Origin: Eledone cirrhosa
Lineage: Eukaryota
Direction: 5' to 3'
Assembly: GCA_964016885.1 (NCBI GenBank)
Contig: OZ024750.1
Span: forward strand, 21,452,001-21,516,000
Length of the DNA stretch: 64,000 nt
Shown here: piece after piece, positions 8,319 through 22,914 of the stretch
How positions within the stretch are numbered: the first letter of the stretch is position 1
Layout: each line of letters opens with the position of its first letter
Made by a program: the position numbers and the translations under genes
The notes under the pieces: model-generated
Databases searched by the model: none
Seen by the model: only the letters and a program-made list of their open reading frames with translations
What the model was told of the DNA's origin: nothing

Positions 8319-8369
<51 letters not shown>

Positions 8370-8373
<4 letters not shown>

Positions 8374-8555
8374 AACACGTTTAACCCCGATGGCAGAGCT
8401 CAAGCCGTTTCCTATTGCCCACTCTACTACCCTAGGTATTGAGTACTCTGGTGCGTTATGGTCCATCTGGTTCCTTACCACACTTCCTTCGTTATATATA
8501 GTAACAGTAATAAATGTGAAGACTAACATCCGAAGAGAGCTCGATAAGGATAATA
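8370..8555. mobile_element. Short PLE-derived element, family 1 (inverted HHR 3' half plus tail)
   Basis: 8370-8411 is the reverse complement of GAAACGGCTTGAGCTC..GGGGT..TTCCT; 8411-8500 matches the tail at 40695-40780. Confidence 0.8.
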
Positions 8556-9996: not shown

Positions 9997-10916
9997 AGTT
10001 TTAAGATATGTTATACATATAATATATATGTTTCTATAAATATATGTTTTTGTAAGTATATGTAAATACATATAAATACTATATATCATATATTACACCC
10101 ACAGACGCACGCAAATATACATTTTTTTATGCAATTTATATACCATACAAATACATATACGTTTATACATACACACGCGCACACGTTTATATATATATAT
10201 ATATCTTTGTTTGATATACGGTTGCATTTGCAAGAATAGTATATCTGAAACCGATTACTCATTTTTGTTACGAGACTGTACATTTGCAGTAATATATTTT
10301 CCGAGAAGAAACAAAGCAAATATTATCAACCCATCCATGTGTATCACCTTCTTAGCGGCAATTGCAGAATAATAGTTTCTGTGTATTTTTATTCCTGATA
10401 CGATTTCCTATTTATGTTTTTTGTATATCTATTCATGTGAAATATCCGTGCTACATCCCTATGTGGAAACAGGGAAAAACTAAATATGTTCAATGTTAAG
10501 GGCTGTGAAGTTTAGTACAACTGCTGTTATGCAATTCAATATATGTGTGTGTGTTTGTATGTGAATATGTGCATAGTGTGTATATATGTACGTGTTCTAT
10601 ATGTACATGTTATGGTCTTGTCTTTTACTCCTTGGGTTGGAACTGCCAGCACTCCATCGCGACGGCTGAAGAGCTTCGATATCTGCCTTTTGTTCGTATT
10701 TTTATTTAAGGTTTCCCATTCAATGTTTTTTTTTTATTTTGGCCTTGTTTTCGTTCGTTGTCTTCAAATTAATAGTAATCCGCAAGTTTGTGGATTGTCT
10801 CTCTGTTGAGCACTGGTCGCTGGTCTCTGTACTCTGAGGGCATCGCTCTCTTTGACAGCATACGTCTGTTTTCTTACGTTTTATATGAATATATGTAATA
10901 TATATATATATATATT

Positions 10917-10992
10917 TGCCAGGAGGTGCTATTAAGTTAGACATGGTCTGGGATAATACTGGCCGAAACCTAGCAAAGTTAATCAAGTTATA
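10917..10992 (+). mobile_element. 3' UTR/tail of CR1-group LINE
   Basis: Near-identical to the reverse complement of 20650-20725 (GCCAGG.GGTGCTATTAAGTTAGACATGG...AAAGTTA). Confidence 0.8.
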
Positions 10993-10997
10993 TATAG

Positions 10998-11650
10998 TAA
11001 GGACCGGATGGGAGGCGTTCAACGGCATAAGGGATGTGCTCAATGGGAGGTTGGTCAAGACCACCCGCGCCAACCTCTTCAATAGCACAGTTTTACCTGC
11101 AATGTTATATGGCAGTGAAACTTGGGCTACAACGAAGAGAGAAGAGCAGAGGCTGGTAACGACTCAAAGAGCCATGGGGAGATCAATGCTAGGAATCTTG
11201 TTGAGAGAGCACATCAGGAGCGAAGTCATCCAACAGAAGTCCGGTGTGAGGGACGTCATCACGGAATATAATCCGCAGCAAGTTCAGATGGGCTGGACAC
11301 GTCGCCCGGTTCACCGATAATCGGTGGACTCGCGCAGTTGCCGAGTGGTACCCGCGCGAGCCGAAACGACCACTCGGAAGGCCTCCACGAGGGTGGAGTT
11401 ACGATTTTAAGAATACGATTGGGAATACATGGATGAGGAAAGCACGTTCCAGAGAGGAATGGACGGCGTGCTGTGACCAGCGGCGTGCTGTGACCAGCGG
11501 CGTGCTGTGACCAGCGGCGTGCTGTGACCAGCGGCGTGCTGTGACCAGCGGCGTGCTGTGACCAGCGGCGTGCTGTGACCAGCGGCGTGCTGTGACCAGC
11601 GGCGCTGAATGGAAGCCCGACAGACTGGTCGGTCAAGGTGATCAAGGTGA
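10998..11650 (+). mobile_element. 5'-truncated RTE-clade LINE, RT C-terminal region plus 3' tail
   Basis: LFNSTVLPAMLYGSETW..QRAMGRSMLG; after a frameshift RWAGHVARFTDNRWT..W.PR..KRP.GRP; tail (TCAAGGTGA)2. Confidence 0.9.
11464..11604. repeat. Perfect 17-bp minisatellite (CGGCGTGCTGTGACCAG) x8 plus CGGCG
   Basis: Eight identical contiguous units read directly, no spacers. Confidence 0.95.
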
Positions 11651-11814
11651 TATATATATATATATATATATATGCAGAAGTGCAGTAAATCCGAAATAAA
11701 AACTGGTAAGAGAACAAAAGTCAGCACTCGATGCAGAGTGTGTGAATATATATATGTATAAATATATAAATATATATATATTAATATATATATATATATA
11801 TATATATAGTATAA

Positions 11815-11893
<79 letters not shown>

Positions 11894-11894
11894 C

Positions 11895-11928
<34 letters not shown>

Positions 11929-12052
11929 TAATATATTAATATATATATATATTAATATATATATATAAATATATATCGCCGTATTTTGACTACAGAAATC
12001 GCTCTCTATGACAATATACGTCTGTTTTCTTACATGCATTGTGTTCATGGGA

Positions 12053-12100
<48 letters not shown>

Positions 12101-12677
12101 GTGTGTGCAGTTAGTGGTATAGCAACATCAGTAGTAGTACTAGTTGTTTTTCTTGAATTAGTAGTAGCAGATATTCTGTCATCTCAATGTAGTTTTATGT
12201 ATCCCATCGTGATGTTACTAGCTTAACGTAACATAACAGGTTTCACCAAATAATTCAGTTTTCAATTGCGGTTAAATTAGATAGTAATATTTTGTCACAC
12301 TAATAAGACATAACTATAGATGTAAACCGCTGTCTTTTATTAGATTTCGTTTATTTTAACTATGGTAATTAGTGTTATTCTTTACTTATTGGTTATAGAC
12401 CGCGCTATAGGAAAGGAATAATGATGGAAATAGCTCCCTGTTCTTATTATCTTTGCCTCATCATATGTATTCTAAAACACATTTATTGTTGTTTCCTTAA
12501 TACTATTGTAAATGATGGAATATGATATTTTGCATACAATTTGCATTAGAAATCGAGATGTTTTATATTGATTTATTCATGCCAGTTTAATATTTTAATA
12601 GATATATATATGTGTATGTGTGTGTGTGAGAGAATTTCTTATATCTAAAGATATACGGTATGTTTAGTACTGCTAGA

Positions 12678-12740
<63 letters not shown>

Positions 12741-12902
12741 TTACTTGTCGCTGATCTATCAAGATCGATGATGCTGGGATATCATATGTATTTTATCTGA
12801 TGAGAGCATGCTCTGATTTATGTTACACATACATTTTTGCATCCCCGAAATATATATAATGAAATAAATAGTGACGATATAAAGTATATATCTTTCCTTT
12901 AT

Positions 12903-13080
12903 TGGCCGTATCGGTAGAGGGTCAGACGCCATGCTTTGAGGCATAGAGTTACGTCCCTTTATGATCTGAGTTCAAATCTCGCCGAGGTTAACTTTGCCGT
13001 TCATCCTTACGGGGTCAAGAAAATAAAGTACCAGTAATGTACTGCTTAATTGCTGTCCTTGTGCCTAAAGTAGAAACAAT
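12903..13080 (+). mobile_element. Octopus-type tRNA-derived SINE
   Basis: A-box-like TGGCCGTATCGG, B box GAGTTCAAATCT, core CATCCTTACGGGGTC, end GTGCCTAAAGTAGAAACAAT(TAT)n. Confidence 0.9.
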
Positions 13081-13174
13081 TATTATAATACTCCAGATAA
13101 ATATTATCAGTTGAGTGTTTCGTATCTGCTATACTCATAAGTCGGTTGATTACATATCAACTAAGTCTTTAACT

Positions 13175-13222
<48 letters not shown>

Positions 13223-13225
13223 ATT

Positions 13226-13403
13226 CTAATATAGAAATGGCTTCTACAGGACTTTCATTCGAAGGAAATCATTATTCACATGAAACAATTCTAGTCCTAT
13301 AGAAGTCATTTCTATATTAAATTTCTTTTATACACTCTACTAATGTATTGAGTACCTTACTTACTGTGGTTACCCCCCCCCCCTTTCCGATTGAACCCGG
13401 GAC
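13226..13403. mobile_element. Family 2 short element with 5' inversion and degenerate HHR
   Basis: TAATATAGAAATGGCTTCTACAGGACT is inverted relative to AGTCCTATAGAAGTCATTTCTATATTA; tail GTATTGAGTACCTTACTTACTGTGGTTACC. Confidence 0.75.
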
Positions 13404-14169
13404 TCTCACACACAGACACATACATATATATATAATATCCCATAAAATATACATGTATTATAGGTGGCAAAATATCTACAAGTATAATTTTATCCACGTA
13501 TATTTAGATATTTAGATAAGACCGGGGTTCGCAGCCATTCAGATATGATATACAGTGATTTCACGATATATTAAAATTTGATGAAATCTCAGTCATATAC
13601 AACGAAAATCTCGGCCATATTTGTGTGTTTCTATTCAACGGCAAAAAAACTAAAAAGCCATTTCTCTTTGAGTTTGGATCGAGTCGAGGAGATAGAAAAG
13701 GTTTACTTCAGGTACCACAACATAGGAAACAACCTGAAATCCCATGACAATGCAGCAAATTTAGTAACTATTCCGCCAAATTGTATTTGATTTGACTGTT
13801 ATTCAAGTGATATAATTCCCAAGAATCTGTGAAATAGGCTGGAATCAGAAACCGCGTGATTATAAAATGAACTTTGTAACAGTCCTACGATACTGACGCT
13901 AAATTGTATGATGCATTTATAGTAATGATGTAATTCTCAAGTTATATTTTAGTCCATTTCATCTATTCGACCTTTATAATTGAAAATGACATTGTAAAAG
14001 GAAGGAAGTGGAATGTTTTCTGTTTATTGAAGTCCATTGTTTGCTATGAACTAAATACATTTGTTGTCTTTCATTTTTGTATTTATGTTGCTGATTTATG
14101 TAATGCCAAATTAGATTTACATTAGAACTGAATCGTTTGTTGCTACTCTTTGATTTCTCCTTCCATTTC

Positions 14170-14252
<83 letters not shown>

Positions 14253-14331
14253 GTATATATATATTTCGTTTCTGAATTTGTTTAGCAAGATTCTTTATCT
14301 GAAAACGTGTGTTGAAACCGATATTGTTATG

Positions 14332-14363
<32 letters not shown>

Positions 14364-14475
14364 GGAACCAGTAAGACCCCGACAGCTGAGCTCAAGCCGT
14401 TTCGACGGCTAATTCTGGACTAAATGAAAATTTATCCTGGTATTTAAATAGCCGATCTTCTCAAGGGGTAATTCC
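14364..14475 (-). ncRNA. Type I hammerhead ribozyme with U3:A8 compensatory core, predicted cleavage after GUC (minus strand, between 14381 and 14380)
   Basis: Reverse complement: GGAA TT ACCCC-TTGAGAA-GA(T)CGGCTA..TAGCCG TC-GAAA-CGGCT TGAGCTC AGCTG-TC-GGGGT CTTACTGG TTCC. Confidence 0.75.
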
Positions 14476-15587
14476 ATATATGGTCAAAGTGATTGTCAAA
14501 AATCAGTAGTAATTCTGTGGTTGCAAATTAGTAGGGGAGATGGTGGCTAAACCTGCCAGTAGGAGAAAGAGGGGAGGGGTGGAGTAGCCCCAATCAAGCG
14601 TTTGTAGTGCCAGCTACAGCTGGGCATGAGGTCAAAGAAGATACAGGGGAGGGGGAGGGGGAGGAAGTCGGAACGGTAGGTAGAACAATGGGGGGTAGAA
14701 ATATATAGGAAAGAAAAAATACTGAGAGTGAAGAAAAGCAAATAAGAGTAAAGAAAAAAGTAAAGTAAATTAAATTCTACGACCTAGGTCTCTAGCTATT
14801 GTTAGTCTAGAATAAATAAATAAATAAAGAAAGAAAGAAGTAAAGAAAGAAATAAAGAAATAACGAAATAAGTAAAAGAACTAGGTGGGACGGATAAGGC
14901 GAGGACCCTTTTAAGAGGTATAAGTACGTAAATGATACGGTGACGGGTCAACAAAAGGGGCCAAAATACTAAAGAGACTACCACGAAATAAACAATAAAG
15001 GTTTCCATCCCGGGCACAATTCCAGCAACCACCCAGTGCAGCAAAGTGAACTAATACGAGATAATAATTCTGAGTCCCGAGAAAAATATATACTAATGCT
15101 AACTCTCAAAAATCTATAACAAGCTACATGAAAGTTCGTACGAAGTAAAGGTAGAATACGGAAGAATAAATTCAGAATCCACCCCGCTCAAAAGAAAAGC
15201 GAAGAATGAAATACTGAAACGAAAAAATAAGGCATAAGTGCCACTAAGAAATATAGAGGGCACAGAGAATAGTGGGAGCGGTCGGAAAAAGGGGACAAGT
15301 ATCCGGGGTCTAAACCAACTGCTATAAAGAGCGGAGTCCGCCAAATCTATCCTAGACTAGGGGAGGGGGTGGGGGTACTAAGGCTACAAGGGGCCAAAGG
15401 GCAGCCTCGGGTGGGCGAGAAAAGACGCCGACAAGGGAGAAGAGCTGGGGTAGAAGGACTAAGGAGAGAGGGGGGAAGGAAGGAAATAAAGGAAGCGATA
15501 AAAGAATACAAAGAAGATCTTACGTCTCCCTTGGCAAGCAGGGGTTACCCATTGCAAAATCGGCAAGTGGGGTGTTATAGCCCTAGT

Positions 15588-16275
15588 CTACCCCCCCCCC
15601 CCCGGGTCATTATGGGGTTTGAGGGCGAGGTAAGTCCTACGCAATCTATGTTTACATGCAGTAACCAGTTCATCTTTCTTGTTTAGGAGTTGGTCCGTCG
15701 AAAACAGCATTTGTAAAGTTTCCTCCGAGCATAAATTGCACGGACGGCGTCCTCCCGTGTAAGAATTGGCTCTGGACAGTATTCTCCAAGTGAGATCATA
15801 GGTGATGTTGTTGTCCTTGAGGTCCCATATGTGGCCCGAAAGTGTAGTGGCGTGACGCCGGGCCGGGTTTCGGAAGGTATGTCTATGTTGGTATAGCCCG
15901 GTCTTGAAGTCACATGCGGTAAGTCCTATATAGGCTTTGTTGGAGGTATCCGTCCTCACGTTGCACTGGTAGATCACATTACGGTCTCTGCATCTATTGT
16001 CGAGTGGGCAAATAGATCTATCCGGGCAGTTACACCTCCTGGTCGGTTCTCCACTGCTATTTAGGTTATTTCTGCCATCGGGGTTGAGTTTTTTGTTGTT
16101 AGAGGAGACGATGTTTTGTGCGAAGTTTGGTGTAGTGCTGTAAGAGAGTTTGATGGTATTTTTGTTAATTATGTTGTGGTAGCGGTGTTGTAATGGGAAG
16201 TGTTTTTCAATGAGCCTAAAGAATAGTTTCCCGATGGGAGTTGTCACCTCTGCGTTGTGGGGAGGATTGAACCAT
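15588..16275 (-). pseudogene. PLE linker plus GIY-YIG endonuclease domain
   Basis: WFNPP, CNC....CPL...C...NVIYQC........AYIGLT..FK....H...F, CNLCSEE, LLNKKDEL..CKH. Confidence 0.9.
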
Positions 16276-16276
16276 G

Positions 16277-16837
16277 TTACATTGCGTGAGCGGCGGTGTC
16301 TCCTGCTGGTTCCGCTAATGGGAGCTGGACAGTAGGATATTTCCGGAAACCACTCCGCTTGAGGGCCTGGTTGTAATAAGGCGCATGTTCATCGAATATC
16401 CGCTCATTAGCTGATAAACGGGATATGCGGAGGGAGATGTTTTTGACCAGGTTGTTTGTGATGTTCCTAGGATGGTTTGATCGGCGGTGGATGTAGTGCA
16501 GATTGTCATTAGGTTTCCTGTATGGGTAGTACAGGTCGTTTTCGAGGTCGAGGGTCACGTCCAGGAAGTTTACTCTGGTCAGGGACGTTTGTAGGGTTAT
16601 TTTAAATCCCCAGTCGCGGAAGAATCTGATTAATTGTTTCCGGACCCGATCTGTACTACTGGGGTTGTACCCTTTAAGGGTAAGGAGCCCATCATCACGG
16701 TAAAATCCACCACCGAATGCAGGGAACATATCAGTGAGTTTGGCTATTAGGAATAATCCTATAAGATCTGTGACCTTCGCCGAATCCGTGGCGCCCATGC
16801 TGACGTCGAAGGGTGAGTCGGGAGCTCTTTTTATCAA
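16277..16837 (-). pseudogene. PLE reverse transcriptase, C-terminal half (frameshifted from the EN part)
   Basis: FDVSMGATDSA, YRDDGL catalytic motif, VNFLDVTLDL, PYRKPND..YIH..SNHP. Confidence 0.9.
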
Positions 16838-17234
16838 TTTAGATACTTGTGCCCATCACCGACCAGGAAAGAAAAATCATCCTCCACGCCAGGAAGACAG
16901 TCTTACTCTTTGACGACTCTAAATGTAAACGGACATTATTATTATTAATATTATTATTCTCTACATTCCTTACGTCAAACTAAAATATGTTGGCAATCTT
17001 TTAAAATGTCTTCCTTGTGAAGTTTGTGGTCTTGTTTTGCTTAACTAATGAATATTTCCAGCTCTGCGCACCTAACTTCTGCATGAACCCAGCCACCTAG
17101 CTGCTTTCTACTGCATATTGCACATTGAGCACATGCCTTTACGCTCTGGCTTCTAACTAACTCACCAATCTCTCCTCTCATATCTCCTCTACTATCTCCA
17201 TCTCACTCTTTAAGATTGGTTACTCTTGAACTGT

Positions 17235-18430
17235 GTATATATATATATATATAAATATATATATAAATATATATAAATATATATAAATATATATATAAAT
17301 ATATATATAGAAATATATATATAAATATATATATATAAATATATATATATAAATATATATATATAAATATATATATATAAATATATATATATAGAAATAT
17401 ATATATATATATATATATAGAAATATATATAGAAATATATATATATAGAAATATATATATATAGAATATATATATATATAGAAATATATATATATAGAAA
17501 TATATATATATAGAAATATATATATATAGAAATATATATATATAGAAATATATATATATAGAAATATATATATATAGAAATATATATATATATAGAGAGA
17601 AATATATATAGAGAGAAATATATATATATATAGAAATATATGTATATATAGAAATATATATATATATAGAAATATATATATATATAGAAATATATATATA
17701 TAGAAATACATATATATAGAAATACATATATATATAGAAATACATATATATAGAAATACATATATATATAGAAATACATATATATATAAACAGACAAAAC
17801 GAACCGAAATTTCATTTCTCACTCTTAGTACGGCTTCCTTTGTCAGTGTTGAACAAATAAGCAACGATGGTTGCTAGACACTGTACGGCTTAATTCGGGA
17901 TGTTTGTTTACAAACACACCTAGCATAATAATAAATGTTCGGTGAATCCATATGACATATATATATATGTGTGCATGTATCTATATATATACACATACTA
18001 CTGTACGTCTGTATACATATATGTATGTACGTATACATACTTATACATATATATAAATACATATATAGAAATACATATATAGAAATACATATATATAGAA
18101 ATACATCTATATATATATACATATATATGTAAATACTTATATATATATATGTAAATACTTATATATATAATTATATATATATATCTATAATTATATATAT
18201 ATATATAATTATATATATAATTGTATATATATATATATAATTATATATATATATAAATATATAAATATATATAAATATATAAATATATATAAATACATAT
18301 ATATATAAATAAATATATATATAGAAATACATATATATATATATAAATACATATATATATAAATACATATATATATATATAAATACATATATATATAGAA
18401 ATACATATATATATATATAATTATATATAT
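17235..18430. repeat. Compound (TA)n microsatellite with recurring GAAAT/AAATAC interruptions
   Basis: Direct reading; interrupted by the element at 17788-18045. Confidence 0.9.
17788..18045. mobile_element. Family 5 copy with 5' inversion; forward part starts at the HHR cleavage site
   Basis: 17788-17836 is the reverse complement of 8952-9002; 17836-18045 matches 9155-9360. Confidence 0.85.
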
Positions 18431-18659
18431 TAGTTTAGCGAGGTTTTTTATATGAAATCGTGTGTCGAAACAGATATTGTTATATTTGGGGAGGGTCATA
18501 TTTGCGTAATATTGCCAGAATTAATAACAGAACACACTCACTGTTTGGTTGGTTTTCGCTTCTCGCTGTCTTTTATATCTGCGATCTAACTTACTCGTTC
18601 CTCAATGTTGCCATTGACTGACACTTCATCAACCGCATTGACAACACTTCATCAACCGC

Positions 18660-19326
18660 ATGCAGTTCTCTGGCTACAACCAAAGAGACAGAGTCAGAGT
18701 ATACGAAGGAGCCATGGAAAAGTATAAGACCCTCATAGAACTGGACATGAAAGGAATTTGCCCACTATACAGGAGCAAATCATGGAATAGCTTAGATAGG
18801 GCTAGACATAAGATAGGGAAGGCCACATCATGGTACGACAACCAGAGATATCAGAGTGTCATGTTTGTGGACGCCACCCCTGGAGGTAAATTAGCTAACC
18901 AGTGTAGAAAGGCCCTGAGAAAGACCCACTTAAAAATAAAGGTGGTAGAAAAGCCAGGAACCACCATAAAATCCCTGATCAGCAAAACCTACCCTTTTAA
19001 GAAAACCCACTGTACCAATAGGAAATGTATCATATGTAAGGTGAACCCCCGGATAAACTGTAAAACTAGAAACGTAGTCTATAGCATAAGATGTACAGAG
19101 GGTACTTGCAGAAACATGACAACAACATACATAGGTGAGACAACAACATGACGGTAACATAGACAACATAGAAATTAGAATAATATCTAAACATAGGAAT
19201 GACCCAGCAGATAGGCAAATCAGAGAGGCCAGTGAAATAGAAATTAGAAGACCAAAGCTAAACAGAAAGAATGAGTGGAACAACAACAATACCCAAACAA
19301 ACAACACTGACCTAAGAGAAGTATAA
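18660..19326 (+). pseudogene. PLE linker/Zn-finger and GIY-YIG endonuclease with internal deletion near 19145
   Basis: ORFs 18660..19151 and 19135..19326 supply the N- and C-terminal EN motifs; the central R..EH segment is missing. Confidence 0.8.
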
Positions 19327-19602
19327 ATAAGTAAATAAAATAAAATAAAATAAGATAAATAAATACATACACAAGCACAATAACAACAAGCACATAAACA
19401 CACACTAGTCACCCAGCAGACACAACACTATACACACTAGTCACACATCACACATAACACTATACACACGCGCAAACGCATGCGCAAAGAAGACAAAATA
19501 AAATAAGATAAACAAACAAGCAAATAAATAAATAAATATATAGACAGACTGAATAAAAAATGGCGTAGACATACAACACAACAGGAGGAACAATGAATAT
19601 AA

Positions 19603-19650
19603 CACCACTGACGATGTTGCAGATGTGCAACGAAAGATTTATGTAACTTA
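19603..19650 (+). ncRNA. Degenerate hammerhead motif in the PLE 3' region
   Basis: CTGACGA-T-GTTGCA GATG TGCAAC-GAAA intact; stems I/III disrupted; homolog at 38172-38216. Confidence 0.55.
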
Positions 19651-20268
19651 TGTAAACTATATATATGTGTTTGTGTCTATATTGTATCTGTATTATTTTT
19701 GACCGCCGGTCAGTCAATGGAAACATTGAGGACCGAGTAAGTTAGATCGCAGATATAAAAGACAGCGAGAAGCGAAAACCAACCAAACAGTGAGTGTGTT
19801 CTGTTATTAATGCTGGCAATATTACGCAAATATGACCCTCCCCAAATATAACAATAATTATATATATATATAAATATATACAAATATAACAATAATTATA
19901 TATATATATAAATATATAACGCAAATATAACAATAATTATATATATATATAAATATATACAAATATAACAATAATTATATATATATATAAATATATAAAT
20001 ATATATAAATACATATATATATAAATACATATATATATATAGAAATACATACATATATATATATATACGTATACATATATACATATATATACATATATAT
20101 ATAAATACTTATATATATATATATATACATATATATAGATAGATAGAGAGAGACGGATGGATACATAGATAGATTGATAGATTTAGAGCGAGAGAGGGTG
20201 TGAATTTTGTGAAGAATATAGTGTGAGACTATGACTTATTGTGCTTTATTTTTGTTACTTTTAGTTTG

Positions 20269-22640: not shown

Positions 22641-22845
22641 AGATAGAGATGGCAACATGAATGGACCTGTTATTTTTATCTAAAGATTGTTCCAATTCCA
22701 TCCGCCTCTCCCTTCAATCTATCTAATTTCTCGTTCTTTTTTCTGATGAACGACTAGCATCCGAAACGTTAAGATGCTCTTCCTGCTATTTCAAGCGTAT
22801 ACTGTACCGATTGCGTACGTTGTTATTTCTGTTATATATATATAT

Positions 22846-22914
22846 AACGAAGAGAGTGTGGTAAGGAATGAGGTGGACCATAACGCACCAGAGAACTCGA
22901 TACTTTGGGTAGTA

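Follow-up and report, generated by a model that had tools for sequence, protein, structure and literature searches.

A U3-A8 hammerhead motif at the end of a Penelope-like retrotransposon of Eledone cirrhosa and short genomic insertions joined at its predicted scissile bond

Whether the hammerheads of animal Penelope-like elements cut RNA in vivo is a standing question, and the passages of PMC4209133 that concern it record an absence of in vivo evidence. The question is raised again by a stretch of 64,000 nucleotides of the Eledone cirrhosa genome (assembly GCA_964016885.1, contig OZ024750.1, positions 21,452,001 to 21,516,000 of the forward strand), referred to here as the window, in whose numbering positions are given. 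On its minus strand a type I hammerhead motif with the core UUGAGAA lies at 14364..14475, within the 3' pseudo long terminal repeat (pseudo-LTR) of a Penelope-like retrotransposon. The motif was analysed together with its copies throughout the genome, among which short insertions were found that are joined at the predicted scissile bond. It is concluded that this U3-A8 hammerhead probably cuts a minority of the element RNAs in vivo at GUC|G.

The hammerhead motif and its core

The motif, which belongs to the youngest subfamily of the element, was delimited by feature-by-feature reading, folding, alignment and a descriptor. On the minus strand, the 5' strand of stem I (ACCCC, 14465..14469) pairs with GGGGU at 14376-14380, is lengthened by GGAA/UUCC and is followed by the core strand U3 U4 G5 A6 G7 A8 A9 (14464-14458). 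The long stem II region (14404..14457) is closed by the pair of G10.1 (14457) with C11.1 (14404), beside which there is a bulge, and an inner hairpin is predicted in loop II. The GAAA (14403-14400), stem III and loop III occupy 14382..14403, with stem III consisting of six base pairs (14400-14395/14387-14382), one of them G·U, and loop III holding the palindrome GAGCUC (14388-14393). The GUC ends with C17 at 14381, and by hammerhead numbering the predicted scissile bond lies between this residue and G1.1 at 14380 (14380..14381). All features listed in an earlier, sequence-only reading of the window were found on the minus strand at 14475-14364; that reading had overlooked the palindromic loop III and the subfamily-specific nature of a CUGG in the stem I bulge.

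The minimum-free-energy (MFE) fold has the hammerhead topology with a stability no better than that of shuffled sequences (z −0.23; 72 of 200 shuffles equalled it), and a strict type I descriptor gave one match in the window and none in 100 block shuffles. An Rfam search of window positions 10000-20000 at E<=10 returned low-complexity miRNA matches and no hammerhead, and the expectation that standard searches would miss this ribozyme therefore holds for Rfam.

Evidence at the level of the family was obtained from a core-strand pattern with 5,839 matches genome-wide, against none for the reversed control. In 56 distinct sequences picked across subfamilies (60 aligned), which are related copies and for which the shuffle control of the alignment is not a probability, stems I, II and III were paired in 92.1, 83.4 and 88.4% of cells, respectively. 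One pair of stem II switches from G-C to A-U in 5 of the 56 rows, and A15.1-U16.1 is present in 54. With all seven core positions left free, 5,614 matches were obtained, of which 98 of the first 100 kept U4, G5, A6 and A9 by eye. A8 is fixed in the family as a whole, with U or C at position 3 and a variable position 7. Three stems surround the core, the structure is open at stem I, and U4 G5 A6 A9, G12 A13 A14, A15.1-U16.1 and H17 are all in place, as in a type I hammerhead. On this family-level sequence evidence the reality of the motif is confirmed, and with its stems 83-92% paired and its core kept it is regarded as a genuine Penelope-type hammerhead. As described in PMC4209133, the Cercyon elements of Schistosoma mansoni likewise have a type I hammerhead in the pseudo-LTR with U3-A8, G10.1-C11.1, a short stem I, a long stem II that has an unpaired base close to the 5' end and a palindromic loop III, as well as many truncated and inverted copies. 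They differ in their minimal stem III, which is here a full 5-6 bp with a loop of 7-9 nt, and loop II is here large.

The sequence-only reading had described the core as a compensatory double change and a rare tolerated variant. Among the 5,839 core-strand matches, A8 was present in 5,757 (98.6%), C3·A8 in 1,500 and U3-A8, by subtraction and with rare A3 and G3 not split off, in about 4,250 (~73% of the family). A Watson-Crick 3:8 pair is present in the window copy (U-A) and absent from the 1,500 C3·A8 copies. By eye, the 82 copies without A8 included 9 with C3-G8, and 23 belonged to a separate UUGAAGA (U3·G8) subfamily. U3-A8 is therefore the majority state, and a chance double mutation of the window copy was ruled out. 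In older and diverged relatives that share stem III and the tail, the core is the canonical CUGAnGA (4 of 12 matches in one search), from which it follows that the U3-A8 core is derived; another old family carries UUGAUAA. The surprise at U3-A8 was unwarranted, since this state, ordinary by itself, has already been published for Penelope-like elements, with about 1,300 matches in S. mansoni (PMC4209133), and natural U3/A8 covariation in hammerheads, earlier shown to be active in vitro, is also described (PMC3088659). In contigs of three runs of unspecified type, T-to-C at position 3 made up ~24% of the depth in one and no A8 change was listed; these runs may represent the source sample and were not counted as support.

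Insertions joined at the predicted scissile bond

A pattern across the scissile bond matched 42,464 sites in the genome, which indicates that most insertions were copied from RNA that was intact or religated there. Among tail-bearing copies, foreign letters stood directly before G1.1 in 426, compared with 30 for a control three nucleotides upstream, the junction patterns letting foreign letters through with probabilities of ~0.56 (bond) and ~0.38 (control). Thirty of the bond-junction matches were inspected by eye and comprised 22 true junctions, 7 copies with an extra G and 1 that had lost C17. A control at −1 matched 182 sites; by eye, some two thirds of the first 100 were of the ambiguous CCCC|GGGG form.

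For the young U3-A8 group, an unselected set of 99 double-armed joints close to the bond was drawn from the first 100 listed of 510 matches, and the arm ends were mapped by script. Filler separated the arms in 49 of these joints, among which 25 inverted arms and 26 direct ones stopped exactly at the bond. The counts were 2 and 2 at −1, rose to 4 and 5 at +1 (binomial p ~1e-7 each) and exceeded 5 at no neighbouring base. Of the 20 joints in which both arms ended at the bond, 19 had a filler beginning with A or T. A/T filler at the exact bond fits a run-off of the reverse transcriptase (RT) at a free 5' end, as in R2, where untemplated nucleotides are added when the RT runs off the ribozyme-cut template (PMC3774820). 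The logic, by which genomic 5' junctions and untemplated bases mark the cut site, is shared with that study of the hepatitis delta virus-like ribozyme of R2. Both the ribozyme class and the element are different, and the R2 cut sets full-length 5' ends, whereas the cut proposed here would mark ~0.5-2% of insertions, which are tiny and double-armed.

Bond joints with diagnostic letters matching on both arms were found in several subfamilies (170, 36, 17 and 5 sites), which points to independent events. An origin of all these footprints from one self-amplified mini-element was ruled out, because arms and tails differ in subfamily letters and in fillers. The roughly 200 tiny double-armed insertions joined at the predicted scissile bond appear to be new, as no earlier report of such a footprint in Penelope-like elements was found in literature searches, whose coverage was partial and may have left out relevant papers.

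A footprint rate was defined as bond joints with 0-2 filler bases per intact tail copies. The young U3-A8 group gave 170 per 9,558 (1.78%) and a C3·A8-dominated group 36 per 7,740 (0.47%), an odds ratio of 3.8 (p 3e-16). The tail marker isolates the C3 group, as judged from 21/21 C3-core against 11/11 U3-core copies, and of 35 footprints fetched from the C3·A8-dominated group 30 were C3-type, 13 having A/T-only filler. In older groups, with the split estimated by eye from 100 rows, old U3-A8 gave 14 per ~1,540 and the oldest C3·A8 3 per ~920 (p 0.13). Five further joints were counted, without a denominator, in the oldest bulge type.

From the peak of copy ends at the bond we infer cleavage by the ribozyme, which would be partial and dispensable for individual insertions, and a route of two-strand priming. 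The RT would begin copying at two sites, 20 and ~98 nt past the bond in the downstream direction, using the two strands of an (AT)n target. Uncut RNA would be copied through the bond, giving the great majority of insertions. Where the RNA had been cut, each of the two cDNAs would run off at the new 5' end and acquire untemplated A, and their head-to-head joining would produce the tiny bond-centred insertions. In PAc, the Poseidon element of Anolis carolinensis, two RT start sites past the hammerhead also bound a tail, the target is AT-rich, core mutants still insert in vitro, and most insertions likewise come from RNA intact at the bond (PMC11167929). The PAc core is C3-G8 and no RNA ends were found at its site, whereas here a subset of copies ends at the bond.

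Several points weigh against such cleavage. The proposal is built on genomic DNA, with cleavage itself predicted from copy ends. Metazoan Penelope hammerheads are described as cutting poorly in vitro (PMC4209133), and for PAc no RNA-seq reads were found to end at its site (PMC11167929). Bond joints are rare, 8 of the 30 inspected matches were not junctions, and 50 of the 99 joints were blunt or overlapped by microhomology. Fourteen of these 50, of the form CCCC|GGGG, fit arms that end at the bond, or arms that end one nucleotide past it and anneal by CG, and this ambiguous class is counted within the 170, 36, 17 and 5 sites. Moreover, 5' truncations 34-45 nt upstream of the bond, in loop II and often in inverted pairs, were present at 43 of 60 sampled loci (L392-L451). 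Finally, an early U3-A8 group gave 5 per ~811 (~0.6%), a rate like that of C3·A8 (30 per ~6,929; p 0.41) and below that of young U3-A8 (p 0.01). The 3:8 pair is therefore not shown to set the rate, and the idea that the footprint rate measures this pair was set aside as not established.

Since RT truncations of this family do cluster at structure in loop II, the peak could also be a structure-induced RT stop at G1.1, or else a transcription start or host nuclease site, with the motif acting mainly as a protein-binding or folding element. The persistence of the footprint in C3·A8-type copies, and rates that do not track the 3:8 pair cleanly, would suit this explanation. However, a stop at the base of stem III predicts ends at −1 or −2, where only 2+2 arms were found on each side against 25-26 at 0. 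A capped start is expected to add G or C, in contrast to the A/T starts in 19 of the 20 fillers, and the nucleotide-exact coincidence with the scissile bond would be left unexplained, so that an origin of the peak other than the ribozyme is considered unlikely.

Efficient cleavage followed by ligation into circles, as proposed in PMC4209133, would derive the spanning copies from circular RNA and the footprints from linear intermediates. Tandem head-to-tail units, which this model would accommodate, do exist (locus L086, described below), and an extra G exactly at the scissile bond, either slippage or a junction scar, occurs in the 7 inspected copies mentioned above (L239, L241, L243, L246, L261, L266 and L267). 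Slippage in the G run accounts for the extra G equally well and is not separable from a ligation scar, and the extra G was dropped as a marker of ligation. Amplification also continued through C3·A8, where footprints are ~4-fold rarer, and PAc inserts from unprocessed RNA in vitro (PMC11167929). Uncut and religated RNA leave the same trace in genomic DNA. Passage through circles is considered improbable. Cleavage of a minority of RNAs, with most insertions made from uncut RNA, is accordingly the preferred explanation. The footprint offers evidence on in vivo cutting that is not contained in the passages of PMC4209133 and PMC11167929 considered here, and insertions ending on a scissile bond provide a test from DNA alone that can be applied to any assembled genome and yields a rate for each subfamily.

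It should also be noted that most insertions are stubs of 70-170 bp without the core strand (42,464 3'-half matches against 5,839 core-strand matches), as seen in the window at 40613-40782, 8366-8498, 42229-42340 and 22841-22914. The first of these (40613..40782, plus strand) is a double-armed mini-insertion of the window's subfamily, consisting of an inverted short arm and a direct arm with tail, in which the arms pass the scissile bond. A second hot spot of joints lies at the loop III palindrome, with an 8-nt overlap in 7 of the 99 joints, giving perfect hairpin insertions (L469, L491, L499, L505, L509, L510 and L529).

The evolutionary path of position 3

The order in which the core states arose was examined with a tree of the 3' part of the open reading frame (ORF), excluding ribozyme columns, which comprised 43 rows (45 extracted, 2 duplicates dropped) and took as its root an inverted ORF next to a CUGACGA hammerhead, to which this ORF was assigned by adjacency. 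This tree is a single ladder leading from UUGAAGA/UUGAAAA through UUGACAA and a long CUGAGAA run to UUGAGAA and young UUGAUAA, and from there to the window's subfamily. Approximately unbiased tests rejected monophyly both of the C3 rows (p 3e-41) and of the U3 rows (p 4e-67), and divergence within subfamilies follows the same order (14.2, 12.5, 6.3, 5.0 and 1.2%). Against this order, a tree of the untranslated region (UTR) and hammerhead, built from 139 of 171 rows after 32 with short upstream homology had been dropped and rooted on long-branched canonical copies, has its root within the C3·A8 stage. Preference was given to the ORF tree and the age proxy, and the order U3·G8/U3-A8, C3·A8 and then U3-A8 is considered likely, with that of the early steps being uncertain.

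As C3·A8 lies on the trunk in either tree, the lineage kept amplifying through a long stage without a Watson-Crick 3:8 pair. The idea of a compensatory double change thus stood in so far as U3-A8 is the majority state, and failed in its claim that the pair must be kept, given the 1,500 C3·A8 copies on the trunk; the pair is not strictly compensatory. Literature searches of partial coverage, which may have missed relevant papers, revealed neither such a C3·A8 trunk stage nor a published measurement of a C3·A8 core. The changes U3-to-C and C7-to-G arise on one branch and G7 is constant throughout the C3 stage, and it may be speculated from these same-branch changes that the pairing was shifted to a C3-G7 register. 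A tentative and on balance rather unlikely proposal is that the family holds a fossil in vivo record of a compensatory path C-G, U·G, U-A, C·A, U-A, in which C3·A8 hammerheads cut their own germ-line RNA at roughly one fourth the rate of young U3-A8 by way of a C·A wobble, protein assistance or the shifted C3-G7 register.

Alternatively, the C3·A8 cores could be inactive and be cut in trans by U3-A8 copies through the loop III palindrome, an explanation limited to the C3 stage that can coexist with partial cleavage by the U3-A8 hammerhead. GAGCUC is retained across all related families examined, canonical relatives included, and for the stem III segment a duplex is predicted to be favoured over two hairpins by 10.5-16.5 kcal/mol. 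Both features are in line with the dimer model of PMC4209133, and the palindrome may permit a dimeric or trans-cutting form. The C3-type footprints also look somewhat younger, at 1.4% divergence compared with 2.0% for intact C3-type copies (p 0.06, with rows of more than 12 differences dropped, 2/32 and 1/28), which leaves room for trans cutting or for imperfect markers. However, CCAU, the older C3-stage marker, is present in 13 of the 35 footprints of the C3·A8-dominated group, the filler of 5 of these 13 consisting of A/T only, and stem III is also predicted to be stable as a monomer (−4.9 to −7.1 kcal/mol for the window, C3·A8, UUGACAA and young UUGAUAA copies). Cutting in trans is therefore seen as possible rather than probable. 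The dated ladder of subfamilies, which presents natural cores of the U·G, U-A and C·A types within a single scaffold, makes the compensatory path at this tertiary pair directly testable.

The stem I bulge and the host element

It had been proposed from the sequence alone that the CUGG in the stem I bulge (14368..14371, minus strand) forms a pseudoknot with CCAG in loop II and so activates the ribozyme. CCAG is present twice in the motif (14440-14437 and 14418-14415, minus strand), CUGG and CCAG are complementary in the window's subfamily, and the group containing the CUGG copies shows the highest footprint rate. CUGG is, however, specific to the youngest subfamilies: 19 of the 20 copies in the window's subfamily have it, as do 11 of the 26 listed for the next older group, while other groups have CUCG, CUUG, CUUU or ACAU and the CCAG of loop II stays put (135 of 185 copies parsed); copies with CUUG likewise yield many footprints. 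Two pseudoknot registers were paired in 51.6 and 50.4% of cells of the 56 sequences, in which the bulge is poorly aligned in the oldest families, compared with the 83-92% of stems I-III, and no covariation was found. The MFE fold pairs the Gs of CUGG with Us of stem I. The contact was consequently abandoned as highly improbable, there being no conserved pseudoknot strand, and pairing of a CUGG in the conserved tail with loop II was absent from the predicted fold. Penelope-like element hammerheads without recognisable loop contacts have been described (PMC4209133).

The element that carries the motif is a 5'-truncated copy at 14358..16843 (minus strand) comprising the end of the RT, a CxCX5C linker, a GIY-YIG domain and a long 3' UTR, and is 95-98% identical to a full-length unit in locus L086. 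Its ORF is split in two (16843-16340 and 16343-15597, minus strand), and sequence comparison identified an inverted 81-bp piece of the same element at its 5' junction (16845..16925, plus strand). Comparison of copies revealed two 3' ends, 20 and ~98 nt after the predicted scissile bond, the 'long' end lying ~78 nt further. The window copy has the 'short' end, UAU, which enters the (AT)n target (14330..14363, minus strand). The tandem unit of L086 measures 3,118 bp and consists of a hammerhead, a leader, an intact ORF of 719 amino acids, the 3' UTR and a second hammerhead. Its ORF has SDKTG, with DKT replacing DKG, and the linker CNCPDRSIC (CxCX5C) is followed by VIY...YIG with no CxxC between them, the C-terminal GIY-YIG being without CCHH by eye. 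Insertion into (TA)n and a pseudo-LTR structure with tandem and inverted units and a tail were also observed. Pfam and PDB searches with the element protein gave no match, and look-alikes in an atlas had HTH_animal, GIY-YIG or RVT_1 in some of their members, which serves as a lead only.

From described clade traits the element is assigned as a putative Hydra-type Penelope-like element. The traits listed for the Hydra clade, namely a single ORF with C-terminal GIY-YIG, DKT, CxCX5C, no CCHH, (TA)n targets, a hammerhead and a tail at one end (bioRxiv 10.1101/2021.04.23.441226; PMC8557442), are common to both when compared by description. The unit here is 3.1 kb, against a published size of 'generally <3 kb', and the passages of the Hydra clade papers that were compared give no core variants.

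The tail (L086 3401-3490) is highly conserved in all subfamilies and in the canonical relatives and has predicted hairpins, making it a candidate protein-binding or RT-start element. The ORF frame is open from inside the hammerhead to the first ATG, ~190 nt past the scissile bond (L086 3379-3579). At 16930-17240 another repeat adjoins the 5' junction of the window copy and is met again next to further copies, in the flanks of L145 and L193. Elsewhere in the window, a frame at 10889-11320 (plus strand), without a Pfam match, resembles what we take to be the end of an RTE-type reverse transcriptase. A fragment of a different Penelope-like ORF, also without a Pfam match, with a CxxC linker and a YIGET motif lies at 18642-19151 (plus strand). 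More distant ORFs of the same kind as that of the element (L200, L222, L071, L207 and L012) have 34-56% identity, and several further related families are present in the genome.
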